Shown piece by piece: positions 4,817 through 20,763 of a DNA stretch of 20,763 nucleotides. The stretch is taken from NCBI GenBank assembly GCA_963934255.1, contig CAWVXU010000045.1, positions 1 through 20,763 of the forward strand. The letters run 5' to 3'. The stretch comes from an uncultured Fibrobacterales bacterium. GTDB lineage: Bacteria > Fibrobacterota > Fibrobacteria > Fibrobacterales > CAWVXU01. The first letter of the stretch is position 1; each line of letters opens with the position of its first letter. The notes beneath the pieces are model-generated. The model was not told the origin of the DNA, made no database searches, and saw only the letters and a list, made by a program, of their open reading frames with translations. The position numbers were made by a program, and so were the translations under genes.

Positions 4817-5962
4817 TTACTTAGCGAATTTAAGCTTGTCATAATCATAGACAGGTGCTTTAGTCTGATAGTACTCTTCGTACATTGCCACAAGAAGCGA
4901 ATGCTTAGCTGGTACACCAAAGTCACTCAGCATATCCCAGAACATAATCCCTGGATATTCAGTGTGCTCACGCATGTATTTTGTTTTAGCTACAGTAGAA
5001 GGAATACCGTTAAATACGATGATTTCACCATTACCAACTGCTATTTCAGAACCAGTTTCTTCATCATAAGTGACTTCGTATTTAGTTGTTTTCAATTGTT
5101 TAAGAAGTTTGTTCCAAAGTTGGATTCCGTCAAGTCCTGAACCTTTACCATCGTAATCACCACCCAGTTTAGTTCCACCATTGAATGATTTGCCATAAAA
5201 AGCATATCCCATAATGAGTTTGTCCTTAGGAAGGCCGCGCTCTTCGTAGTATTTCATAGTTGCCAATGAACGTGGGATGCCTGAGTTAGGGAGAATTGAC
5301 TTTTCCCAAGTTCCCATGTAATCATAAGTCATCAACATCAAGTGATCTAATTGGTGGAGTGATTCATCAGTAATGTGACGAGCCCACCAGTCAGTCGCAG
5401 GCAGTGCAGCTGAGAATTCAATTTTTTTGCCGGTAGCAGCTAGATGAGCATCAAAAGCAGCGCGGGTTTCATTAAATAAAAGCCTATGACCTTCTTTGTC
5501 ATCACGAGTAGTCCCTGGATTAAGAGGAGTTACTGGGTATTCCCAGTCAATATCAAACCCATCAACATCAAATTCTTTAACCATACCAAGCATGTTGTCA
5601 ATGAAGAATTTGCGGCGATCGGCTGTTTTGGATAATTCAGCAAAACCTTCAGATTGGTCAGCACCACCGATTGAGACAATGAGCTTAACATTGTTCTCTT
5701 TAGCCAGTTTAATCATTTTTACAAAGTTGTCTTGGTCAGTTTCATCTGCATTGAACAAATCGCCATTAGGGTTTGTTTTGTAAAATGAATACATGATGTG
5801 AGTATACATCTTATATCGGATATTCTCTGCTTTAAAACCAGAGTATTGGCCCCAATTTGGGTAGTACCCCATGATGTACTTTTTGTGGCCAGCTTCTTCG
5901 GCTGCTAATATAGACGCAGCACTTATGAATAGCGCTAAAGCTAATGTAATTGCTCTTTGCAT
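4817..5962 (-). CDS. Secreted glycoside hydrolase family 18 (chitinase-like)
   Basis: Signal peptide; GYYPNW, YTHIMYSF, SIGG, catalytic DGFDIDWEYP, MTYD, AFYG, GIMFW. Confidence 0.93.
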   Translation of the reverse strand: MQRAITLALALFISAASILAAEEAGHKKYIMGYYPNWGQYSGFKAENIRYKMYTHIMYSFYKTNPNGDLFNADETDQDNFVKMIKLAKENNVKLIVSIGGADQSEGFAELSKTADRRKFFIDNMLGMVKEFDVDGFDIDWEYPVTPLNPGTTRDDKEGHRLLFNETRAAFDAHLAATGKKIEFSAALPATDWWARHITDESLHQLDHLMLMTYDYMGTWEKSILPNSGIPRSLATMKYYEERGLPKDKLIMGYAFYGKSFNGGTKLGGDYDGKGSGLDGIQLWNKLLKQLKTTKYEVTYDEETGSEIAVGNGEIIVFNGIPSTVAKTKYMREHTEYPGIMFWDMLSDFGVPAKHSLLVAMYEEYYQTKAPVYDYDKLKFAK

Positions 5963-6010
5963 TTGCTTTTCCCTTCATTATAAAGTTGAATTCCTAAACA
6001 TTAGCATAAA

Positions 6011-6039
6011 AGTATAATTTTCTCCAAAAGAGAGTGCAA
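6011..6039 (-). promoter_or_regulatory. Putative sigma70 promoter of the GH18 gene
   Basis: Minus strand TTGCAC-N17-TATACT about 50 nt upstream of the ATG. Confidence 0.5.
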
Positions 6040-6189
6040 AAAGTTCAAACATTGTATTTGTGTCCATTAAGAGAACACTTTACACATTTTTTTTAAAAAT
6101 TGTTGTATTTTTATTTTGCTTTCAGTGGTAATAAGTATAAGTTGTCACTAGCGAAGGTAATTGTGAGAACATTTTAAGGAGAAATAAAT

Positions 6190-7203
6190 ATGAAAATTCT
6201 TTCAACATTTAAAGCGTTTGGCCTAGTGGCCGTTTTAGCAACTGCATCATCTGCAGCTGTATTAGATGATATGTCTTCAGGTAATGGAACATCGTCTGAT
6301 GGCATGGGTCTTTGGACTCCTGATTCTGACCAAGGTTCAGGTGGTAACTCTGACGTACTTATCGATGGGTTGTCAGCTATTGGCGAGGACATTGCAAATT
6401 GTCCTACTGGTGATGCAGACGAGGATGGCTTATCTGATTGTTATTGGGGATGGAATGTTGACCAAGGTTATACAGGTGGAACATTAAATTCAACAATTAA
6501 AGTAACTGCTGCAGTTCCTGCTTCACTTGGAGAAGATAAATGGTCATGGGCATCAGCTGGTTGGTTCTATATCTTTAATGGAACATCTTTTGATAATGCT
6601 GCTGAAATGGGATTCTCTGGTCAGGAAACACTTACCTTAAGTGCAAGCTTCCCAATCGGAAAAAAACTACGTGTTCAAGTTAAGCAAACAAACCTAGGTG
6701 ATCTTGACACTCCTGCTCGTATGGAGATTTCAGGTACTGGTTCTATGAAAGATTATAACATTCCTCTTTCTGGTCTTGTTGTTCCTGATTGGGACGTTGC
6801 TTCAAATGGCAAACGTGACATGTCTAAAGTAGTTGCAATTGGCTTCCTTTACACTGTTGGTGGAACTGCAACTGGTGCTGACCTTCCTGATGGAGCTGCT
6901 GGTGAATACGCAATGTCTATTGCAGGACTTTCTTGTGAAGGTTGCTCTGCCGGTACAGCTCTAGTTAATGCTGCTGCAGGTTCTGCTCTTAACTTTGAAT
7001 TATCTTCAAGTGCAATTGATTTCAGTCAAGTTTCTGAGCAAACTACTGTTGAACTATTCAACCTTTCAGGTGAGCTAGTTTCTTCAGAGTCTTTCTCTTC
7101 TGACGCAGCTGTTTCAATTACTAACCTTTCTAACGGAACATACATTGCTCGCGTTAACGAAGGTTCATCTGTAAGTTCATTTCGTTTTTTGGTTAACAAA
7201 TAA
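6190..7203 (+). CDS. Secreted protein with CBM11/CIA30-like domain and C-terminal T9SS type A-like sorting domain
   Basis: AAGGAG RBS; signal peptide ending ASSA; Trp-rich core (LRVQVK...YNIPLSGLVVPDW...DMSKVVAIGF); C-terminus VELFNLSGELV...ITNLSNGTYIARV...FRFLVNK. Confidence 0.7.
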   Translation: MKILSTFKAFGLVAVLATASSAAVLDDMSSGNGTSSDGMGLWTPDSDQGSGGNSDVLIDGLSAIGEDIANCPTGDADEDGLSDCYWGWNVDQGYTGGTLNSTIKVTAAVPASLGEDKWSWASAGWFYIFNGTSFDNAAEMGFSGQETLTLSASFPIGKKLRVQVKQTNLGDLDTPARMEISGTGSMKDYNIPLSGLVVPDWDVASNGKRDMSKVVAIGFLYTVGGTATGADLPDGAAGEYAMSIAGLSCEGCSAGTALVNAAAGSALNFELSSSAIDFSQVSEQTTVELFNLSGELVSSESFSSDAAVSITNLSNGTYIARVNEGSSVSSFRFLVNK

Positions 7204-7228
7204 TAATTAGATAGACTTATAATACTTT

Positions 7229-7260
7229 GGGGGAGGTTTTGTACCTCCCCCCTTTTTTTT
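7229..7260 (+). terminator. Intrinsic terminator-like hairpin abutting the next RBS
   Basis: GGGGGAGGT-tttgt-ACCTCCCCC followed by C and T8, then GGAGG at 7261. Confidence 0.75.
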
Positions 7261-7271
7261 GGAGGTTATAT

Positions 7272-8579
7272 ATGAAAAAGCTAATTCTAGGACTAATTTC
7301 AATTGTTCTTTTATCGGCATGTTTTTTTGGTGATGATGAGGGATCTAGTAAACCTAGTATCGACCCACTTCACTATGCATTACTGAATGATGATTTGACT
7401 CTCCATTTTGGTGATGATAAAAATGAATTGCTTGCATATTATCAAGGTGGTGCAGTCCCAGTAACATATGACCCGAACAACTATATAAACCATTACAACA
7501 CCACTGGATCTTTAGAAGCTCGCCCTTATGCAATTACTCTGCCAGCTGATTATACCTATTTAGGCTATATTGAAGCCAATCCAGACCTTGCAGCTTTCGA
7601 TCAAGCAACGGCTAATAACCATTATCTTACAGCCGGTATGTGGGAGGGTAGGGGCTATGGTGCAGTTGTGGTAATACCACCTGACAACAGAATTAGTCGC
7701 ATTGGATTTATCCAAGCTTATGCAATTTCAGGGCAACCTCATGTTGATGAAATCGACATCAATAGATATACCCAAATTAACCTTTTCTCCGTTGAAGCTG
7801 ATGCCAGCGGAAATGTTAATTCTCAAGCCATAGACAGGAATATTGCCAATATAAATTTAATGGTGACTGTTGCTCGTAACGCTGGAGTAAAAGTCTGGAT
7901 GACTCTTGGTGGAGCAGGCAAATCAGATTTCTTTCATGACCTAGCTGTCAACCCTGCAGCTTCAGCTGCACTCATCACAAACCTAGTAACTTACCTAGAT
8001 ACAAATAATTATGACGGACTTGATATTGACTGGGAATTTCCAGAAACTCAAGCTGAAGCCGATTGGTTTGCTGTCTGGTTAGGTCAGCTAAAAGCTGCAA
8101 TGGGAGACAAGAAGCTTTCTATTGATATCCCTACATTTTATCATAGAGACACTTGGGCAAGTGAAATCCCTGCTCGTGATGCTTTTACGGCTGCATTCGA
8201 TGCTGTTGATGAAGTCAATATCATGGCTTATGACATGGCTGGCCTGGATCATTCCAATTACACATCTACTAACTTGACTATTGATTATTTCAAAAGCTTG
8301 GGTTTGGATATGGCTAAGACCAATTTAGGTGTGCCTTTCTATGCCAAAAACAAGCAAGATGGTGGTGATATGACTTGGGAGTATTTCCAAATTTATAAAC
8401 TCAATAACCCGATTGATAAAGTTGTCTTTACCCCAGAATCAGAGAGAATTGAAAAAGTTAATCGTATCATTGACGAGGGTATGGCTGGAATCATGTATTG
8501 GGAAGCCTCTCATGACTCGTATGACGCTACTTCATTAGCTGTTTGGTATGACGAACAATTAAAAGCTCGTGGCAAATAA
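7272..8579 (+). CDS. GH18 chitinase-like lipoprotein
   Basis: Start moved to ATG 7272 behind GGAGG; lipobox MKKLILGLISIVLLSA-C; TLGG, catalytic DGLDIDWEFP, MAYD, GVPFY, GIMYWE. Confidence 0.9.
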   Translation: MKKLILGLISIVLLSACFFGDDEGSSKPSIDPLHYALLNDDLTLHFGDDKNELLAYYQGGAVPVTYDPNNYINHYNTTGSLEARPYAITLPADYTYLGYIEANPDLAAFDQATANNHYLTAGMWEGRGYGAVVVIPPDNRISRIGFIQAYAISGQPHVDEIDINRYTQINLFSVEADASGNVNSQAIDRNIANINLMVTVARNAGVKVWMTLGGAGKSDFFHDLAVNPAASAALITNLVTYLDTNNYDGLDIDWEFPETQAEADWFAVWLGQLKAAMGDKKLSIDIPTFYHRDTWASEIPARDAFTAAFDAVDEVNIMAYDMAGLDHSNYTSTNLTIDYFKSLGLDMAKTNLGVPFYAKNKQDGGDMTWEYFQIYKLNNPIDKVVFTPESERIEKVNRIIDEGMAGIMYWEASHDSYDATSLAVWYDEQLKARGK

Positions 8580-12129: not shown

Positions 12130-14181
12130 TTAATGAATACTCGCTCCTTCAGGTGCTTGACAAGTCACTTCAGCCCAACCAAATTTAAGAACTTGACCAT
12201 CAGCTACAACTTTACCTTCAACGACAGATACGGGCGTCTTGTCAAAATCTTTAATAGAAGCCTTTGCTTTGGGTTGACGTGGTAATTCACCGAAATGTAA
12301 TTCTGCACCGACTTCAAGCTCACCTACATCAAGTAGTAAGGCCTTATCGTCAGCACCATCTCCTGCAAGTAACATTCCTTTACTTTCAAGACCGCGAAGT
12401 TTTGAAGGTTTGAGATTCGCAAAAAGGACCACTTTCCGGTCAGTCAGTTCAGAGGCTGAATATGATGATTTGAGCCCAGCGCAAACTTGTCTAAGGCCTT
12501 GGCCATCATTGACTTGAAGCACAAACAAAGAGTCAGCTTCTGGGTGATCAGCGACTTCAACAATTTGAGCTACTCGCATATCTAATTTTGATAAGGCGTG
12601 TAAGTCTTGTTGAACTTGTTTGGTCTTTTGAGGCTGGCCTTCACCTTTTTTAGGTTTTTCAATGAGCTCAATTCTTGGGAAAAGAGCTTGGCCTTCACCG
12701 AGTGTTAAACCACTAGATAGCATGCCCCATGTTGGTTCATCTTCGTGATTAATCAGACCCAGCATGTCAAGTCCTTGTTTGGATTTGTCAGGCATTACAG
12801 GTCCAAGTAATTTAAGCGCCACTGCCATTGCTTCTGCTGAGACGACAAGTGTACGAGTCAAGTCAGGGCGATCGTTTTCCTCTTTGACTAATTTCCATGG
12901 GGCTTTCACTTCAAGGTATTTGTTCACAGCGCGAACTAGCACAAAAATTTCTTCGATAGCTTGAGAAAGTTTTAACTCAAGTACGAGAGCTTTAGTGTTT
13001 TTGATGACACGTTCACCCAGTATTTTTAAATCATTCTCTTCTTCACCTAGCTCAGGGCATTCAGGGATGATATTATCAAAATTTTTGGATAAAAGCTTGT
13101 GTACTCGATTCAGCCCATTTCCTAAGTCGTTGGCAAGTTCACTATTGATACGACGTTCAAATGCTTCATCTGTAAATGATGCATCATTGCCAAGTACCAT
13201 ATCCCGAATGACATAGTATCTAAAACTATCGACACCAAACTTATCCATGTATGGAATAGGGTCAATAGCAGTGCCACCCGATTTGGACATTTTGGCTCCA
13301 CCATTCATCCACCATCCATGCGCTAGAATGTGTTTTGGTAAAGGAATTTCAAGAGCCATCAACATGGTGATCCAATAAACAGAGTGTGTTGTCAGGATGT
13401 CTTTTCCAATAAGATGGAAATTGGCTGGCCACATATCGGTGCCGTCTTTGAACTTGCGACCTTTGACACCTGAATAATAATTGAGCAGCGCATCAAACCA
13501 AACATAAGTGACATAATCCTCATCAAATGGAAGTGGGATGCCCCATTCAAGGCGAGACTTAGGGCGGCTAATACAAAGGTCACGAAGGTTGTTTTTTAAG
13601 AAACCTAAGACTTCATTGGCGCGAAACTCAGGGACAATAAATCCTGGATTGTTTTCAATATGGGCAATCAATTGTTTCTGGTAAGAGCCCATTTTGAAGA
13701 AGTAATTTTTTTCTTCAAGCCATTCTACTTCACGACCACTAATGGGATCTTTGCCATCGACTAATTCTTCTTCTCCAAAGAAACGTTCTTCACCTACAGA
13801 ATACCACCCCGCATAAAGCTCAGAATAAATAAGATCTTGATCGTATAATTTCTGGAGTTGTTCTTTTACGCAGGCTTTATGGTCTTCCTGAGTGGTACGA
13901 ATAAAGAAATCATAATCAATATTCATCTTAGTCCATAAGTCTTTGAACCTGACATTGTATTCATCTACATGAGTCTGAGGATCTACTTCTCTTTTAGTGG
14001 CGGCTTGTTGAACTTTTTGACCATGTTCATCAGTTCCAGTCATTAAAAATACGTCATATCCATAAAGTTTATGGTATCTTGAAATAACGTCAGCAAGAGT
14101 GGTAGTATATGCATGTCCAATGTGTGGAATGTCATTGACGTAGTATAATGGGGTCGTTAAATAAAAATTTTTATCGATCAT
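12130..14181 (-). CDS. metG: Methionine--tRNA ligase with C-terminal tRNA-binding (Trbp111/EMAP-like) domain
   Basis: TTPLYYVN, HIGH, GTDEHGQK, YVWFDAL, IGKDI, KMSKS; C-terminal HPEADSL...NLKPSKLRGLESKGMLLA. Confidence 0.97.
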   Translation of the reverse strand: MIDKNFYLTTPLYYVNDIPHIGHAYTTTLADVISRYHKLYGYDVFLMTGTDEHGQKVQQAATKREVDPQTHVDEYNVRFKDLWTKMNIDYDFFIRTTQEDHKACVKEQLQKLYDQDLIYSELYAGWYSVGEERFFGEEELVDGKDPISGREVEWLEEKNYFFKMGSYQKQLIAHIENNPGFIVPEFRANEVLGFLKNNLRDLCISRPKSRLEWGIPLPFDEDYVTYVWFDALLNYYSGVKGRKFKDGTDMWPANFHLIGKDILTTHSVYWITMLMALEIPLPKHILAHGWWMNGGAKMSKSGGTAIDPIPYMDKFGVDSFRYYVIRDMVLGNDASFTDEAFERRINSELANDLGNGLNRVHKLLSKNFDNIIPECPELGEEENDLKILGERVIKNTKALVLELKLSQAIEEIFVLVRAVNKYLEVKAPWKLVKEENDRPDLTRTLVVSAEAMAVALKLLGPVMPDKSKQGLDMLGLINHEDEPTWGMLSSGLTLGEGQALFPRIELIEKPKKGEGQPQKTKQVQQDLHALSKLDMRVAQIVEVADHPEADSLFVLQVNDGQGLRQVCAGLKSSYSASELTDRKVVLFANLKPSKLRGLESKGMLLAGDGADDKALLLDVGELEVGAELHFGELPRQPKAKASIKDFDKTPVSVVEGKVVADGQVLKFGWAEVTCQAPEGASIH

Positions 14182-14227
14182 GATATTTCCAGTGGTTTTC
14201 TTTGACCCAAAAATAGAAATTAATAGT

Positions 14228-14563
14228 ATGGAACGAGTTTACATTGCAAGTGATCCTTCAGAAGTTGTTATCGTACAATCGAGACTTAACTCTGCAGGTA
14301 TAGAATCAAAAGTGGTTGGAGACGACCTTTTTAATCTTCGAGGGGCCCTTCCTATCGAAGATAGTACTCTTCCCACCATTTTTGTGGATGTTAAGGATCT
14401 ACCTCAAGCTCAAAAGGTGATTGAAGCTTATGAAGAGTTTAAGATCAAAATGAATCAAGAAGGTGGCTTTGGAGAAGACTGGGTCTGTTCAAAGTGTTCT
14501 GAAACACTAGAAGCTCAATTTGCAACTTGTTGGAGTTGTGGTACTTCTAGAAATACCGAATAA
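14228..14563 (+). CDS. DUF2007 (PII-like) protein with C-terminal RanBP2-like zinc ribbon
   Basis: MERVY...SRLNSAGIESKV...; WVCSKCSE...FATCWSCG. Start moved to ATG 14228 to avoid overlap with metG. Confidence 0.8.
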   Translation: MERVYIASDPSEVVIVQSRLNSAGIESKVVGDDLFNLRGALPIEDSTLPTIFVDVKDLPQAQKVIEAYEEFKIKMNQEGGFGEDWVCSKCSETLEAQFATCWSCGTSRNTE

Positions 14564-14589: not shown

Positions 14590-16047
14590 TTAGAGTTCAA
14601 TTTCATGGTCTTGAAGTTTTCGCCAAAGGGTGGAACGACTGATCCCTAACTTTTTTGAGACTTCAGTTTGATTGTTGCCAAGCTTTTTAAGTGTATCGAT
14701 GATGTGAAGCTTTTCGATCTCAGATAGTGTCAAAACATCTGATTCGAGTGTCGCCTCTAAGGTTTGTTCGAGTTGGCCACCTGAGATGTTTGAGGTTCTC
14801 ATATGAGGTTCATCGCTTTGATCATTGTCAAGCTCAATCCTAATTTCTCCACTCAAAGCTTGGTTTTCATAGTTAGGCAGCGCCTTTTGACCTGGATGTG
14901 CAGTCATTCGTTCGGGTAAATCTTCTAGGCGAATTTGGTGTTCTTCAGCCATTACGACAGCGTGTTCAATCGCGTTGGATAATTCACGAATATTACCCGG
15001 ATAGTTGTAGTCAGTCAGGGCAAATTGAGCAGCATTATCAATTCCAGAAATTTCACGTTCATGATCTTGATTGTTTTTTAACACGAAAAATTTCACCAAA
15101 TTAGGAATCGTTTGCTTTCTTTCTCGCAGTGGTGGAAGGTGAACTTGAAATGTATTGAGGCGGTAGAAAAGGTCTTCTCTAAAATCCCCTTTTTCTATGG
15201 CTTGACTCATATTTACATTTGTCGCGGCGATGATTCGAACATTAATATGCTTGCTCTCTGTGTCCCCAACACGGCGGATTTCACGATTCTCCAAAAAGCG
15301 AAGTAATTTCACTTGAGTTTGAGGGGGGAGTTCACCCACTTCATCTAAGAATAAAGTACCGCGATCAGCCTCTTCAAAGAGTCCTTTTTTATCGGCAATT
15401 GCTCCAGTATAGGCACCTTTTTTAGATCCAAAAAGTTCACTTTCGACGATGTTTTCTGGAATGGCTCCACAATTTACTGCGATAAATGGTTCTTCGGCTC
15501 GTTTGGATAATCTGTGAATAATATTGGAAACAAACTCTTTTCCGGTACCTGATTCACCTGTGATGAGTAGGGTCGAGGAGGTCGGAGCTACTTTATAGAG
15601 AGTCTTAAGAATTTTTTTCATGGCAGGTGTTTGCCCGAGTAAATCTTCTAATACATGGTCTTCCATCAAGCGATAGTTTTGGCGAGATTGAGATCTTGTG
15701 ATTGCTTTTTTGGCCGTATCTTCTAAAAGTTTTGGCCCAATTGGTTTCATTAAATAACTATGTGCACCCTTAGAAAGGGATTTCTCAGCTTCTCCTAGAG
15801 ATTTGGAATCGCAAAGGACGATGATTTCAACACCTGGTGAACAATCTTTAAAATGAGAAATAGTGTCAAATCCATCCACGGTAATGAATTCAGTTGCTAA
15901 GAAAATACAGTCAAAGGGACCCTTTTCTGCCGATGAAATCACCTCTTTGTCATTGGTGGTAGATATAATAACAACTTCGTTCAAACTCCAATCATTGAGG
16001 ATTTGATCGGCAAAGCGAGTGTCTGGATCAGCTAATAGAATTGACAT
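14590..16047 (-). CDS. Sigma54-dependent enhancer-binding protein (NtrC-like architecture) with atypical receiver domain
   Basis: Walker A GESGTGKE, NCGAIP, ESELFG..KGAYTGA, Walker B LFLDEVGE, FREDLFYRL, PGNIREL, Fis-type HTH LGISRSTLWRKL; AAGGGG RBS. Confidence 0.95.
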   Translation of the reverse strand: MSILLADPDTRFADQILNDWSLNEVVIISTTNDKEVISSAEKGPFDCIFLATEFITVDGFDTISHFKDCSPGVEIIVLCDSKSLGEAEKSLSKGAHSYLMKPIGPKLLEDTAKKAITRSQSRQNYRLMEDHVLEDLLGQTPAMKKILKTLYKVAPTSSTLLITGESGTGKEFVSNIIHRLSKRAEEPFIAVNCGAIPENIVESELFGSKKGAYTGAIADKKGLFEEADRGTLFLDEVGELPPQTQVKLLRFLENREIRRVGDTESKHINVRIIAATNVNMSQAIEKGDFREDLFYRLNTFQVHLPPLRERKQTIPNLVKFFVLKNNQDHEREISGIDNAAQFALTDYNYPGNIRELSNAIEHAVVMAEEHQIRLEDLPERMTAHPGQKALPNYENQALSGEIRIELDNDQSDEPHMRTSNISGGQLEQTLEATLESDVLTLSEIEKLHIIDTLKKLGNNQTEVSKKLGISRSTLWRKLQDHEIEL

Positions 16048-16101
16048 AGAGTCCCCTTATCGATTGAGAAACCGTTGTTTCAATGAGTTTGGCATCAGTA
16101 T

Positions 16102-16164
16102 TGTTTAAAATTGAAACACATCCGCTCATATAAATATACAACGAAAACGTTCTAATATGAAACA
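16102..16164. promoter_or_regulatory. Two 17-bp palindromic boxes around a putative sigma70 promoter of the bEBP gene
   Basis: Minus strand TGTTTCAATTTTAAACA (16102-16118) and TGTTTCATATTAGAACG (16148-16164); TTCATA-N17-TATATT at 16161-16133. Confidence 0.6.
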
Positions 16165-16185
16165 ATTTAGATGTGAGGGGAGGAC

Positions 16186-16207
16186 TACTCCATCAATTGA
16201 TGGAGTA
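16186..16207. repeat. Perfect 22-bp palindrome between dnaJ and the bEBP gene
   Basis: TACTCCATCAATTGATGGAGTA, extendable by GGA/TCC; no U tract on either side. Confidence 0.8.
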
Positions 16208-16258
16208 TCCAACACTAGATAATGTGGAAAATGATTTATGAGTGTCTCAAGCCCGAGT

Positions 16259-17377
16259 TTAGCTAAAAAGATCCTTGAAGCTATCAAAGAAAGATTTTTC
16301 TCTTGCAGAGTCTTCTTCAGATTGGACTTCAGCTAACTGAACAATGAGGTCTTTTTCCTCAGAGCTTAATTTTTCAGGTACAAGGACATTGATTTTGACA
16401 TACAATGACCCTTTGTATTGACTGTGATTTACTTCAGGCAGGCCTTTGTCGCGAATTCGGAATTTCTGCGCAGGTTGTGTCCCGGCAGCAATTTTAATTT
16501 CGACTTCATCAAAAAGAGTGGGTATGCGTTGTTTGCCGCCGAGTACTAATTTGTGGTAAGGTACTTTGACTTCACAATGAAGATCAGCTCCATCACGAAC
16601 ATAGAAGCCGTCTTCTTTTTCGTGAATGACTGCAATGATGTCACCTGAAGCTCCGCCCATGCGACCGGCATCACCTTCGCCGCGTAGAGTCAGGTAATTA
16701 CCTTCAGCAACTCCAGGAGGGACTTTAATTGAAATCGTAGATTCTTCTCTTACTCGGCCTTCGCCTGCACAACTTCCACAACGATCTTTAATGCTATTAC
16801 CTGAGCCTTGACATGTTGGACAGGTAGTAACATTGACCATTTGACCAAATAAAGATTGAGTCATTTGGCGTACTTGACCTTGACCAGCACAAGTTGAACA
16901 AGTGCTTTTCCCAGTGCCGCCGGCACCAGCACATGAACCACATGAACGATGGCGTTTGATTTTAATCTTCTTAGTAATGCCTTCGGCAATTTCTTTGAGA
17001 TCAAGAGTTAAGCGAACTTGTAGGTCTTTACCTGGAGGAGGTCCAGATGGTCCACGTTGACGTCTGCCACCACCAAAAATATCTCCAAATTGAGAAAAGA
17101 TATCATCCATAGAGCCGCCACCAAAGCCGCCTCCACCGCCACCACCAAATCCACCTGGAGCATCATGCCCAAAACGGTCGTAGTTAGCTTTTTTAGAATC
17201 ATCACTCAATATATCATAAGCTTCAGCTGCTTCTTTGAAGCGTTCTTCAGCTGCATCATCACCAGGGTTTTTATCTGGATGATTTTTGATAGCAAGCTTT
17301 TTGTAAGCTCGTTTAAGTTCTGCTTTATCAGCATCTTTGCTGACACCAAGTATATCGTAAAAATCGCGTTTAGACAT
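16259..17377 (-). CDS. dnaJ: Chaperone DnaJ (class A)
   Basis: J domain with HPD, G/F-rich region, four CxxCxGxG repeats, C-terminal domain. Confidence 0.97.
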
Positions 17378-17453
17378 TTATATCCTCTTAAATTCTTTTT
17401 TAGAAAACATCCTAAAATCCACTCAGGCTCATCTAAGCTGTTTTACAAAAAAG

Positions 17454-17488
17454 AAAAAAATCTGCCTCAGGAAACCCTGAGGCAGATT
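17454..17488 (-). terminator. Intrinsic terminator between dnaK and dnaJ
   Basis: 13-bp perfect stem AATCTGCCTCAGG/CCTGAGGCAGATT with a long T tract on the minus strand. Confidence 0.9.
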
Positions 17489-17501
17489 AATTTTAGAAAA
17501 A

Positions 17502-19424
17502 TTATTTCTTTTCTTCTTCAGCTTCAGTTTCTTTGTCATCAACTACTTCGTAGTCAGCATCAACTGCACCATCGTCGTCTTGTGTAGACTGAGCTTGTTC
17601 TTGACCAGGCTCTGCACCTTCAGGGGCAGCTTGTGTAGCTTGAGCAAGTTGACCAAGTAGTGCTTGGAAAGCTTCAGTTTTAGATTTGACTTCTTCAGTG
17701 TTATCTGCTTCAATCGCTTCTTTGATAGCAGAAATTTGTTTGTCGATTTCAGTCTTAAGCTCTGCAGGTACTGCTTCGCCAGCTTCTGAAACTTGTTTTT
17801 CAGCTTGGTAAATCATTTGTTCTGCGTTGTTTTTAACTTCAACTTTTTCTTTTGCTTCTTTATCGGCTTCAGCGTTAGCTTCTGCGTCTTTCATCATGCG
17901 ATCGATTTCTTCTTCAGAGATACCTGAGGATGACTCGATTTTGATTGACTGCTCTTTACCAGTTTCTTTGTCTTTTGCTGAAACGTGTACAATACCGTTT
18001 GCATCAATGTCAAAAGTCACTTCAATTTGAGGTCCGCCACGAGGTTTTGGTGGAATCTCAGATAGGTCAAAGCGTCCAAGAGTTCTGTTGCCAGAAGCCA
18101 TTTCGCGTTCACCTTGAAGTACGTGAATAGTCACTGTAGGTTGATTGTCTTCTGCAGTTGAGAATACTTGTGATTTTTTCGCAGGCACAGTCGTGTTGCG
18201 TTCAATCAATTTAGTCATCACACCACCCATAGTCTCAATACCAAGAGAAAGAGGAGTCACATCCAAAAGAAGTACATCTTTTACAGCGTCATCACCAGCA
18301 AGAACACCAGCTTGAACTGAAGCACCAATTGCAACAACTTCGTCAGGATTCACACCTTTATGTGGGTCTTTACCAAAGAATGATTTCACAGCTTCTTGGA
18401 TAGCTGGAATACGTGTAGATCCACCTACTAATATTACTTCTGTGATTTCAGAAGTTGAAAGTCCAGCGTCTTGGATACATTTGCGAACAGGATCCATTGA
18501 ACGTTTTACAAGGGCCGCAGTCATGTCTTCAAATTTTGCACGAGACAAAGTAAGATCAAGGTGTTTAGGACCTGATGCATCAGCTGTGATAAATGGAAGG
18601 TTGATTGCTGCAGAGTTTGTACCTGAAAGATCAATTTTTGCTTTTTCAGCAGCTTCTTTAAGACGTTGAAGAGCCATTTTGTCTTTACGTAGATCAAGTC
18701 CGCTATTGTCTTTAGCAAATTCATCAGCGATCCAATTGATGATAATATCATCAAAGTTGTCGCCACCAAGAGAAGTATCACCATTCGTTGCAAGTACTTC
18801 AAAAACGCCATCACCGATATCAAGAACAGAGATGTCAAATGTACCACCACCAAGGTCATATACAGCGATTTTACCTGAAGCACCATCAAGGCCATATGCA
18901 AGAGCTGCAGCAGTTGGTTCGTTGACAATACGTAGGACTTCAAGACCAGCAATTTTACCAGCATCTTTAGTTGCTTGACGTTGTGAGTCATTAAAGTAAG
19001 CAGGAACTGTAACAACAGCTTGAGTTACTGTTTCACCTAAATAGTCTTCAGCAATTTTTTTCATTTGTTGAAGGATGATTGCAGAAATTTCTGGAGGAGA
19101 AATTTGTTTGCCATCAATGTCAACTTTAACAGCATCAGATGCGGCACCAACAAGTGTGTATGGTACAGTTTTCTCAGCAGAAGAAACTTCTGAATGAGTA
19201 CGACCCATGAAACGTTTGATTGAGTAAACAGTTTTAGTTGGGTTAGTGATTGCTTGACGTTTAGCTACATCACCGACAAGACGTTCGTCGTCTTTGGTGA
19301 AACCAACGATTGATGGTGTTGTGCGTTTGCCTTCTGCATTAGCGATAACAGTTGGTTTACCACCTTCCATTACAGCGACACACGAGTTTGTAGTTCCTAA
19401 GTCTATTCCGATAATTTTACCCAT
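17502..19424 (-). CDS. dnaK: Chaperone DnaK (Hsp70)
   Basis: [51 protein letters not shown]; carries the N-terminal insert typical of diderms. Confidence 0.99.
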
Positions 19425-19454
19425 GATAGGTCTCCTTGGTTTTTTTAAAATTTA

Positions 19455-20075
19455 TTAAGCGCCAGCTGATACGATAACTTTAGCGTGGCGAATGACTTTG
19501 TCTTTTACTTTATAGCCTTTTTGAAAGACTTGTAATATATGGTCTGCTTCAACTTCTTCCGAAGGTTGCTGCATGAGAGCTTCATGCTCATTTGGATTAA
19601 AAGGTGTCCCAGATGGGTCAATTGTTTCAAGTCCAAAATCGCCAAGTACTTTTTTGAATTGGCCTGCAATTAAGTGAATCCCTTTAGAGAAGTCTTCATG
19701 ATTGTCAGCGCCACCCTCAGTTTCAATTGCACGATCAAAGTTATCTGCAACTTCACAAAGTTCACCTAAGATTTTCGAGTTTGCTCTATCGACTAGCTCT
19801 AAATTTTCTCTTGCTGTACGACGACGATAGTTGTCGAATTCAGCATGGAGGCGAAGGTATTTATTACTGAGGTCTTTATATTCATCAGAATCTTTAACAG
19901 ACACAGTTTGGATTCCTTCAATTGCTTCTTCTAATACATCTGCTTCTTCTATTTCAATTTCTACAGAGTTTTCTTCAACTTGATTAGATTGTTGAGTCCC
20001 TTCAGATGACTCAGCTGCTTCACTTACAACTGCTTCTTCGTCTAACTCTTCATTTTGAATGTTTTCTTTTGTCAT
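19455..20075 (-). CDS. grpE: Nucleotide exchange factor GrpE
   Basis: LRLHAEFDNYRRR, FNPNEHEAL, VFQKGYKVKDKVIRHAKVIV; directly upstream of dnaK. Confidence 0.97.
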   Translation of the reverse strand: MTKENIQNEELDEEAVVSEAAESSEGTQQSNQVEENSVEIEIEEADVLEEAIEGIQTVSVKDSDEYKDLSNKYLRLHAEFDNYRRRTARENLELVDRANSKILGELCEVADNFDRAIETEGGADNHEDFSKGIHLIAGQFKKVLGDFGLETIDPSGTPFNPNEHEALMQQPSEEVEADHILQVFQKGYKVKDKVIRHAKVIVSAGA

Positions 20076-20117
20076 TGACTGATACTTTCAAAGAAATGGT
20101 TTCTTATTTTTCTTTAG

Positions 20118-20135
20118 AGCGATGTTTATGCCAAG
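20118..20135 (-). promoter_or_regulatory. Sigma54 (-24/-12) promoter of grpE-dnaK-dnaJ
   Basis: Minus strand CTTGGCATAAACATCGCT: TTGGCA box and exact GG-N10-GC spacing, 43 nt upstream of the grpE ATG and correctly oriented. Confidence 0.7.
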
Positions 20136-20226
20136 TTTCTATAGGCACCTTAAAATGCATTTTTTCGTTCAAAAAGGGCAATTTTACAGTTGTTTAAAAT
20201 AAACTTGAATCATATTGTTGTGGGAG

Positions 20227-20243
20227 TGTTTCAATATTGAACA
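20227..20243. promoter_or_regulatory. Candidate upstream activator sequence (bEBP box)
   Basis: TGTTTCAATATTGAACA, a TGT-N11-ACA palindrome about 95 bp upstream of the -24 element; 15/17 identical to the box at 16102-16118. Confidence 0.6.
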
Positions 20244-20294: not shown

Positions 20295-20329
20295 AAAAAA
20301 AGCTGCCTCAGATTATCTGAAGCAGCTTT
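20295..20329 (-). terminator. Intrinsic terminator of groEL
   Basis: Minus strand AAAGCTGCTTCAGA-taa-TCTGAGGCAGCTTTTTTT. Confidence 0.9.
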
Positions 20330-20382: not shown

Positions 20383-20763
20383 TTACATCATTCCGCCCAT
20401 GCCTCCCATTCCACCCATAGCAGCTGCAGCAGCGCCACCATCATCTTGAGATGGAAGATCAGCTACGATACATTCTGTAGTAAGAACAAGACCAGCAATT
20501 GAAGCAGCATTTTTAAGAGCAGACTTCGTTACTTTAGTTGGATCAATAACACCCGCAGCAAGTAGATCTTCATAGACATCTGTTTTGGCGTTATAACCAT
20601 GAGAACCTTCAAGCTCTTCAACTTTGTTCACAATAACAGAACCTTCAAGGCCTGAGTTGATCACGATTTGACGAAGAGGTGCACTTGCTGCTTTCAAAAT
20701 GATTTGAGCGCCAAGTTGTTGGTCATGATTTTCATAGCCGTCGACTTTAATAGAAGTTGCCGC
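20383..20763 (-). CDS. groEL: Chaperonin GroEL, 3' part (gene begins outside window)
   Basis: Frame open to the window edge; [32 protein letters not shown]-terminal GGM repeats. Confidence 0.98.

Follow-up and report, generated by a model that had tools for sequence, protein, structure and literature searches.

A bEBP, that is a sigma-54 AAA+ activator, encoded behind dnaJ in this Fibrobacterales genome likely binds a 17-bp palindrome and likely activates the sigma-54-type promoters of groES-groEL, grpE-dnaK-dnaJ, hsp20 and clpB. An earlier note on the same DNA had proposed a dedicated activator of the DnaK system; the motifs and the synteny support such an activator, but its predicted targets make up a wider chaperone network.

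The chaperone locus and its candidate activator

The window, meaning the whole stretch of 20,763 nucleotides that was analysed, carries on its minus strand the 3' end of groEL (20383..20763), which is the gene upstream of grpE, followed by grpE (19455..20075; ORF and Pfam), dnaK (17502..19424; sequence read directly) and dnaJ (16259..17377; ORF and Pfam). As the earlier note had described, the bEBP gene (14590..16047, minus strand; ORF and Pfam; 485 aa) lies downstream of dnaJ and on the same strand, with a spacer of 211 bp. Terminator-like hairpins, as pattern matches only, are found 3' of groEL (20299..20329, minus strand) and in the dnaK/dnaJ spacer (17459..17488, minus strand), and the window has no match in Rfam. 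The end of another contig, C132, holds groES and the 5' end of groEL and is likely to form one locus with the groEL end of the window.

The protein consists of a receiver (aa 1-118), a sigma-54 AAA+ domain (PF00158, aa 137-386, E 2.6e-70) and a Fis-type HTH (PF02954, aa 440-479, E 3.3e-12), and with its AAA+ motifs and a GAFTGA-type loop that holds the Thr it has the features of a sigma-54 AAA+ activator. In its AlphaFold model (mean pLDDT 80) a long helix connects receiver and ATPase. Across 54/54 orthologues there is no change in Walker A/B, R-fingers, sensor II or the loop Thr, and Trp20 is invariant as well. The loop itself reads GAYTGA, with Phe in 25 and Tyr in 29 orthologues; it takes the form GSYTG or GSFTG in 25/54, variants that could make a weaker sigma-54 contact. 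GAYTGA is also present in HrpS, a working activator whose activity is reduced by the loop Tyr (PMC3105312).

The receiver is degenerate, and alignment to NtrC1 places Ala51 at the phosphoacceptor position and Cys79 at the switch position. Because the phosphoacceptor Asp is kept in only 10/54 orthologues by residue counts, the receiver does not appear to be switched by phosphorylation; the switch position is Thr/Ser in 8/54 and Cys in 37/54. The automatic annotation as NtrC/GlnG was ruled out, since the Asp is missing and the NCBIfam cut-off is missed (best NtrC match 343 bits vs 559, with none of the named bEBP families among the 25 matches listed passing). An NtrC-type two-component response regulator (group I) was likewise rejected, as neither a phosphoacceptor Asp nor a Thr/Ser switch is present here, and neither the window nor the upstream side of the dnaJ-linked loci showed a cognate histidine kinase gene. 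The ESM Atlas returned generic bEBP clusters only, and a search that used one receiver sequence as query found nothing but 5 unrelated matches. With a receiver profile run against 50% representatives, the best 150 matches included 12 single-stretch matches resembling family members by eye, the others being mostly multi-receiver proteins, and revealed no large family outside. The named top matches of a profile search are all Fibrobacterota, and Fibrobacter succinogenes has a protein identical to the orthologue of genome G039.

A match to the bEBP occurs in 202/207 class genomes, nearly always as a single copy. Comparison of gene order in relatives, a check that the earlier note had suggested, upheld the linkage: dnaJ lies directly upstream in 19/30 genomes, another gene in 9 (Fibrobacter, Hallerella and kin) and a contig end in 2, and the gene is beside dnaJ in none of 30 other-class dnaJ loci.

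Promoters and boxes at chaperone genes

The -24/-12 promoter that had been read before grpE is present as TGGCATAAACATCGCT at 20133-20118 (minus strand, motif search), 58 bp upstream of the grpE start. Its palindrome (20227..20243, matrix scan, no strand assigned) does lie at enhancer distance, starting 110 bp before the -24 element, and is identical to that at 16102-16118 at 15/17 positions, as claimed. The source genome also has the motif at groES (C132:2423, with a box at C132:2323) and at an hsp20 gene with two in-frame stops. Across 30 class genomes surveyed, the motif was found upstream of grpE in 28/29, of hsp20 in 30/30 loci, of clpB in 22/24 and of groES in 18/30, for a shuffle expectation of 0.5-0.7 per gene set; it was found upstream of none of 6 weaker clpC-type matches. 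Where other genes split grpE from dnaK (G016, G039), dnaK carries its own motif and box. Three further checks that had been proposed gave clear outcomes: rpoN is present here and in 121/121 class genomes, and neither rpoH (best match 147 bits vs a cut-off of 323) nor hrcA was found in the source genome. rpoN occurs together with -24/-12 targets that have upstream palindromes, as expected on the genome side for a sigma-54 activator.

The regulon foreseen by the earlier note was recovered in part, with groES and hsp20 here and clpB in relatives, but htpG mostly has no promoter and none was found at lon here. As a core target htpG was rejected, the motif being found in only 6/26 (three of them with a box) and the htpG of the source genome having neither motif nor box; the lon upstream region of the source genome gave no site in the scans.

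The box consensus, YGTTTCA-N3-TGAAACR, was derived after seeing these sites, those of the source genome included, and the PrpR enhancer CGTTTCATGAAACG has an identical half-site (PMC4987338 Table 1). Boxes with at most 2 mismatches occur at grpE in 24/29, groES in 23/30, clpB in 10/24 and hsp20 in 8/30 (0.2-0.5 expected from shuffling, likewise for sites within 2 mismatches); the hsp20 and clpB boxes are weak. Because the genomes are kin, the counts for promoters and boxes alike, and their p-values, overstate independence. Spacing between box and promoter follows a helical period of 10.5 bp (R 0.52 over 53 distinct distances, vs R 0.06-0.19 for periods of 8, 9, 12 and 13), with one phase common to all five gene sets.

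Within the source genome, the groES box is the sole one with 0 mismatches, and its score of 25.9 alone among the boxes clearly exceeds the best shuffled-genome scores (18.6-21.7). Three of the 13 scored sigma-54-like sites are boxed (groES 25.9, grpE 16.2, hsp20 9.9) and the other 10, flagellar ones included, have box scores of at most 1.1. A matrix built from relatives only ranks groES first in the genome, the two boxes in the bEBP spacer second and third, and grpE fifth. Sites that differ from the consensus at no more than 2 positions number 56 in the 2.67 Mb genome, so that about 0.02 would be expected in the roughly 0.8 kb of three intergenic regions, where 4 are seen. The significance of the boxes is one of position and conservation rather than of single scores. 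The view that they are random matches in AT-rich DNA, and that the gene order is incidental, is already disfavoured and highly improbable: scores of 16-22 are found in shuffled genomes too and the genome is 61% AT, but the boxes recur at four gene classes in upstream regions that range from 28 to 66% GC among relatives, their distances are helically phased, and synonymous codons within hrcA are fixed at the motif, with unlinked controls.

Two boxes stand before the bEBP gene, box 1 at 16102..16118 (1 mismatch to consensus, rank 2 in the genome) and box 2 at 16148..16164 (2 mismatches, rank 3), both from the matrix scan with no strand assigned. Box 1 is a likely autoregulatory site, and in the source genome the bEBP is likely to act on these two boxes to curb its own transcription as well. 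The claim of matching boxes at the gene's own promoter therefore holds for the boxes but not for a sigma-54 promoter, as no -24/-12 motif was found before the gene, and not for the family, as the box is conserved in only 2/29 orthologues; both a sigma-54 promoter for this gene and a self-box as a family feature were rejected. Box 2 overlaps the -35 of a weak sigma-70-like match (16133..16161, minus strand, 9/12 positions by pattern match), which is not above chance (9 such matches vs 11.8 expected).

That HTH dimers of the bEBP bind the boxes is very probable. LWRK closes the recognition helix in 54/54 orthologues, and a similar helix was found in 1/40 non-member bEBPs. Furthermore, the clade (support 100 SH-aLRT, from a quick tree) is the sole bEBP clade common to the small genomes G000, G002, G005, G011, G019 and G241, which have 3-4 bEBPs each, and five other-class genomes chosen for carrying a groES box have one clade member each. 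In G005, G011, G019 and G241 every Fis-type HTH sits within a bEBP; a free Fis protein as common box binder was rejected, no free Fis-type HTH being common to the small box-bearing genomes. A reading in which the promoters and boxes are genuine but serve a different binding protein, the dnaJ-linked bEBP being a passenger that has its targets elsewhere, is quite unlikely. In its favour, the gene lies away from dnaJ in other classes and, in several Fibrobacteraceae genera, follows genes for a histidine kinase and a single-domain response regulator (a histidine kinase gene is upstream in genera g4, g6, g8, g12 and g16); the source genome also has three further bEBPs and another two matches to the Fis-type HTH. 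However, those three bEBPs differ from the dnaJ-linked one in their recognition helices and would suit nitrogen, flagellar and kinase-linked functions. The small box-bearing genomes share neither another bEBP clade nor a free Fis-type HTH, and two of the three best boxes of the genome lie directly before the bEBP gene.

Some box positions are left unexplained by a simple looping model of the proposed activator: at htpG of G016, G029 and G039 the box is downstream of the -24/-12 motif, and at grpE five boxes begin as close as 25-35 bp upstream of the motif. In addition, all 6 groES promoters of family f7 have a box while neither strand offers a good -24/-12 motif, and in three of them the box lies 54 bp before a sigma-70-type -35. 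These sites, the absence of a phosphoacceptor and of an adjoining kinase gene in the dnaJ-linked loci, and the loop Tyr that lowers HrpS activity would suit a bEBP that binds the boxes but is not switched by stress, with steady or growth-linked expression, or acting as a partial repressor or a Fis-like sigma-70 helper. We regard this as unlikely, as most boxes lie upstream of the -24/-12 motif on one helical face and all catalytic residues are invariant. Moreover, sigma-54 promoters require an activator and the small genomes share no bEBP clade besides this one; groESL, grpE-dnaK-dnaJ, clpB and hsp20 are the classical inducible stress set.

Absence of hrcA and a promoter motif within its coding sequence

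The statement that no hrcA or CIRCE precedes grpE can be extended, as neither an HrcA match nor a match to a CIRCE pattern was found anywhere in the 92% complete source genome. With regard to HspR/CtsR control, a pattern scan for the HAIR element gave no match in the source genome. hrcA occurs in 0/157 Fibrobacterales genomes vs 45/51 in other orders, and CIRCE lies upstream of groES in 17/20 other-class operons. In the sister orders that have hrcA, the sigma-54 motif and two boxes lie within the hrcA coding sequence (32/32). The embedded TGG-N8-TTGC is found in 32/32 hrcA genes of families f5 and f7, in 0/11 unlinked f8 genes and in 0/18 of other classes. Among 93 conserved hrcA columns, the four with the strongest codon fixation belong to the motif, and one Leu is TTG in 32/32 vs a background of 30%; this codon test and the unlinked controls argue against mere protein conservation as the source of the f5/f7 matches before grpE, which was rejected. 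Three states exist within one class: HrcA with a sigma-54 promoter in hrcA, HrcA relocated, and HrcA lost.

These states would fit a history in which the ancestral operon of the phylum, groES-groEL-hrcA-grpE-dnaK-dnaJ, was under CIRCE control. In the class Fibrobacteria the bEBP gene would have taken up its place downstream of dnaJ, and grpE would have acquired a sigma-54 promoter with a pair of boxes, located inside hrcA in f5 and f7. The Fibrobacterales would next have lost hrcA and placed groES under the same sigma-54 control, so that the bEBP would likely have replaced HrcA at the folding genes of this order.

Proposed mechanism, known systems and significance

In the proposed mechanism, HTH dimers of the bEBP would sit on the boxes and its AAA+ ring would open the sigma-54 closed complex. 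As in NtrC1, the degenerate receiver likely keeps the ATPase inactive, to be released by a non-covalent signal. Our best guess at this signal, offered tentatively, is that the bEBP may be freed from DnaK/DnaJ as unfolded protein accumulates.

The best sequence and fold matches are of the NtrC1/NtrC4 type (PDB 4l4u, 1ny5, 3dzd), with the same three domains, but in the Fibrobacteria protein the phosphoacceptor Asp is replaced and Cys mostly stands in for the switch Thr. Myxococcus xanthus HsfA/HsfB, a heat-shock NtrC/kinase pair acting on lonD, offers a likeness in that an NtrC-family protein switches on a heat-shock gene; as described in the text available, however, the pair is a two-component system that works by phosphorylation and has lonD as named target, unlike the kinase-free dnaJ-linked loci (PMC3892784). 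Elsewhere in the phylum these chaperone operons are governed by HrcA/CIRCE, although HrcA is a repressor of sigma-70 promoters and the bEBP a candidate sigma-54 activator.

Sigma-54 motifs at chaperone genes are shared with Flavobacterium psychrophilum SM4, of a sister phylum, in which starts with -24/-12 elements have been mapped at groES-groEL, dnaK, grpE-dnaJ, htpG, clpB and lon; there, in the text available, three PF00158 candidates are given with no activator assigned and no enhancer motif, and the main text does not mention HrcA (PMC9723704). In Bacteroidota and Planctomycetota, promoters of the same class at the same chaperone gene families have been predicted, in the text available by matrix only and with neither activator nor box; the name 'Fibrobacter' does not occur in the main text and turns up in a single supplement row, for the rpoN gene (PMC12316311). 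Chlamydia trachomatis CtcC is a bEBP that raises hrcA-grpE transcription via a sigma-54 promoter alongside CIRCE, but that promoter lies upstream of hrcA rather than within it or in its place, and in the text available hrcA-grpE is one entry of a developmental regulon, whereas the Fibrobacteria targets are mainly chaperones (PMC7482065). The earlier note had held the type of regulator to be undescribed. As sigma-54 chaperone control is published for Bacteroidota and Chlamydia, at least in the text available (PMC9723704, PMC7482065), this stands only for the named activator, the box and the take-over from HrcA; searches of the open-licence literature for this circuit brought up no paper whose title or abstract names a regulator of this kind.

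Sigma-54 chaperone promoters have thus been mapped or predicted in several phyla, with activator, site and signal not given in the texts available; for Fibrobacterota there are now a single candidate activator, a defined box and a list of targets. It is possible, if doubtful, that they represent a distinct class of heat-shock regulator, in which a kinase-free pseudo-receiver AAA+ activator would sense chaperone load directly and in which a promoter and two enhancers in the HrcA coding sequence would have preceded the full displacement of HrcA, the intermediate surviving in living lineages. The phylum has a cultured model, F. succinogenes, which makes the circuit experimentally testable. The three hrcA states in one class are an unusually clear record of the replacement of a stress regulon, with a promoter and its enhancers held by codon choice inside the gene of a repressor.

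The chaperone locus in the source genome

The minus strand of the window carries, in order, groEL (3' end), grpE, dnaK, dnaJ and the gene for a sigma-54 enhancer-binding ATPase (bEBP; 14590..16047, 485 aa). The source genome, in which the window forms contig C45, spans 2.67 Mb and is 92% complete; orthologues from its order and class bear the source names Fibrobacter, Hallerella and Fibrobacterota, which places it in Fibrobacterales. groEL is interrupted by an assembly gap, with residues 1-55 at the end of contig C132 behind groES and those from ~431 on in the window; no second copy was found in this genome. The sigma-54-type (-24/-12) motif at grpE described in an earlier note, together with two 17-mers identical at 15/17 positions and their distances, was reproduced in the sequence, and rpoN, suggested there as a check, was found in the source genome. 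Four bEBPs are encoded in this genome, while hrcA (the textbook repressor gene of groES/dnaK operons), its operator CIRCE and rpoH were sought in the 92%-complete assembly and none was found.

The groES promoter has a -24/-12 motif near-identical to that of grpE and, 100 bp before it, the sole 0-mismatch copy in the source genome of a 17-bp palindrome, YGTTTCA-N3-TGAAACR (the box). A -24/-12 motif also precedes hsp20, with a weaker box at 128 bp, and ten further sigma-54-like sites, several of them preceding flagellar genes, lack a box. A box matrix trained on 40 sites, all from relatives, ranked groES first, two sites before the bEBP gene second and third, and grpE fifth. Best scores in shuffled genomes were 18.6-21.7, and the groES box (25.9) is alone clearly above chance by score.

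Several other features of this genome were recorded. The hsp20 gene (C19:35646-36104) retains its sigma-54 motif and box yet contains two in-frame TAA stops, reflecting either a recent pseudogene or an assembly error. A -24/-12 motif without a box lies just upstream of rpoN itself (C33:12835-12852), making rpoN autoregulation possible. Besides RpoD and FliA, five sigma-70-family factors of ~270-295 aa, including two similar pairs, are encoded on C9, C23, C28 and C36, none of which meets the RpoH cut-off. Within the window, the dnaJ-bEBP spacer holds a perfect 22-bp palindrome without a T-run (16186-16207), the region 4817-8579 encodes two GH18 glycoside hydrolases along with a protein whose C-terminal sorting domain is of the T9SS type, and the start codons of metG and a divergent DUF2007 gene overlap (12130-14563).

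Conservation of the sigma-54 chaperone regulon

As judged from upstream sequences, the sigma-54 chaperone regulon is real and conserved. Thirty genomes were picked to cover all eight families of the class Fibrobacteria (family labels f1-f8 and genus labels were taken from the search tool) and their upstream regions scanned by fixed rules. The -24/-12 motif precedes grpE in 28/29 cases (the missing one has just 128 bp to the contig end), hsp20 at 30/30 loci from 27 genomes, clpB in 22/24, groES in 18/30 and htpG in 6/26, one further htpG region being too short; dimer shuffles gave 0.5-0.7 motifs per gene set, and six weaker clpC-type matches in the same scan had none. Boxes with at most two mismatches were found at grpE (24/29), groES (23/30), clpB (10/24), hsp20 (8/30) and htpG (6/26), where 0.2-0.5 would be expected per gene set; because the genomes are related and the consensus came from these very sequences, such counts measure conservation and are not independent trials. 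Distances between box and promoter recur at 10.5-bp intervals, in equal phase across five gene sets, and rpoN was present in 121/121 class genomes tested (the unpublished genome G253 entering as one row, on which no conclusion rests). The further sites anticipated at groES, clpB and hsp20 were thus borne out in relatives by both motif and box, while at htpG some loci carry them and the majority lack the motif. Likewise, the proposal of a dedicated DnaK-system activator agrees with the grpE promoters and fails in its restriction to DnaK, as groES, hsp20 and clpB would be included too.

Three additional arrangements were observed in relatives. In G039 and G016 (loci L140 and L141) grpE is separated from dnaK by a GH43-CBM6 gene together with small genes, and a separate motif and box serve dnaK there. 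The same two genomes (L255 and L241) contain a gene, whose product we take to be SecA-like, that has a sigma-54 motif and, beginning 27 bp ahead of this motif, a box; this gene is a possible additional regulon member. In G029 (L252:976-1517) a Thoeris ThsB-like TIR gene lies downstream of a sigma-54 motif accompanied by a box with one mismatch.

Absence of hrcA from Fibrobacterales and a promoter motif embedded in hrcA of other orders

hrcA is absent from 157/157 Fibrobacterales genomes and present in 45/51 from other orders (G253 again counted as one row). The 18 sigma-54 groES promoters are those of all 17 Fibrobacterales and f6, all with a box within three mismatches, and CIRCE occurs at 10 of the remaining 12. 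Families f5 and f7 share the operon groES-groEL-hrcA-grpE-dnaK-dnaJ-bEBP with CIRCE at groES. All 32 of their hrcA genes contain TGG-N8-TTGC, which lies ~220-290 nt ahead of the stop codon, or 171 nt in a single truncated gene; box-like sequences are found 141 and ~226 nt upstream of this motif. grpE directly follows hrcA in 29/32, the other three genes being at contig edges. None of the 11 f8 hrcA genes carries the embedded motif, and none is followed by grpE. hrcA was aligned for 43 genomes, all 45 except G253 and G287, where the gene is split. Among 93 columns whose residue is conserved and degenerate, motif columns took the top four places for codon fixation, and their codons are often rare in these genes; fixed codons in the motif include TTG (32/32; background frequency 0.30), GTT (29/30; 0.21), CGT (27/31; 0.12), TCA (25/30; 0.09) and GTA (23/30; 0.12).

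In the other classes of Fibrobacterota, 18/20 fetched operons contain hrcA and 17 have CIRCE; the embedded motif was found in 0/18 of these hrcA genes and the bEBP gene after dnaJ at 0/30 loci, two with short flanks. Box and motif occur together at the best-scoring groES copy in 7/30 of their genomes, and G095, with an operon lacking hrcA, has both at the groES of that operon.

Some observations do not fit a single scheme. The f7 groES promoters combine a box with CIRCE and a sigma-70-type promoter, the -24/-12 motif being absent, and some boxes elsewhere lie downstream of the -24/-12 motif or very near it; hence the bEBP may have more than one mode of action.

The bEBP as candidate activator and its possible history

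From comparative sequence evidence, assignment of the bEBP as activator of this regulon is well supported but unproven. Its N-terminal 135 residues have a match, nearly always single, in 202/207 class genomes (G253 as one row). A quick tree was built from 73 AAA+ domains (28/54 orthologues, every bEBP of six small genomes and 30/40 matches from five other-class genomes), in which the orthologues and one protein per other-class genome form one clade (support 100), the only clade common to all six small genomes; in four of these, every Fis-type HTH lies within a bEBP. Two of the source genome's three best boxes directly precede the bEBP gene, the matching box noted earlier being one of them, although a box at this place is rare in relatives (2/29). 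The box shares its half-site with the PrpR enhancer and its length with NtrC-type sites of 17 bp (PMC4987338, Table 1).

The suggested synteny was also recovered, with dnaJ directly upstream of the bEBP gene in 19/30 class genomes, namely all 17 outside f3 and 2/13 within it, one of these two with an intervening PIN gene. In several f3 genera the gene instead lies behind a histidine kinase gene, in most cases accompanied by a single-domain response regulator, and boxes and motifs are still found at chaperone genes. Loci L264-L269 (G039, G029, G019, G140, G235) have a large histidine kinase before the orthologue, mostly with the single-domain regulator, while L270-L272 (G133, G123, G126) have a conserved 192-193 aa protein without a Pfam or NCBIfam match directly upstream; in G123 this pair is duplicated and one bEBP copy is truncated. 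In the 1.6-Mb closed genome G241 (L134), lptC follows the bEBP gene, rpoN lies ~5 kb further, and groES lacks both CIRCE and the sigma-54 motif.

All 54 orthologues keep the ATPase motifs, Trp20, Asp7 and the LWRK with which the recognition helix ends, and the phosphoacceptor position is Glu (17), Ser (17), Asp (10), Asn (4), Ala (3) or others (3). Genus g4 orthologues have Asp there, and phosphorylation may operate in them. In the structural model a single long helix connects the receiver fold with the ATPase, and the best fold match of the model is inactive-state NtrC1; no cut-off was reached against curated family profiles.

Related systems have been described elsewhere. Chaperone-gene sigma-54 starts were mapped in Flavobacterium, with three candidate activators and, in the sections available, none assigned (PMC9723704), whereas in Fibrobacterota a candidate bEBP and box can be defined. 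Sigma-54 chaperone promoters were predicted in Bacteroidota and Planctomycetota (PMC12316311), and hrcA-grpE is raised by CtcC in Chlamydia (PMC7482065). In Myxococcus, a heat-shock protein of the NtrC family, HsfA, is driven by a kinase (PMC3892784). A chaperone regulon does not appear in the passages available from the Desulfovibrio regulome (PMC4641369). No paper on a sigma-54 chaperone circuit in Fibrobacterota was found in the literature covered, including the supplements of PMC12316311. A look-up for promoters lying within hrcA likewise gave no match.

Chaperone titration, for which sigma-32 and HspR are precedents, is a candidate activating signal, suggested by likeness to these regulators and by gene position. 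The simplest history, with the order of events based on distribution only, would be that Fibrobacteria recruited an old activator with a few targets to grpE-dnaK-dnaJ and that groES would have been taken over by this activator upon hrcA loss.
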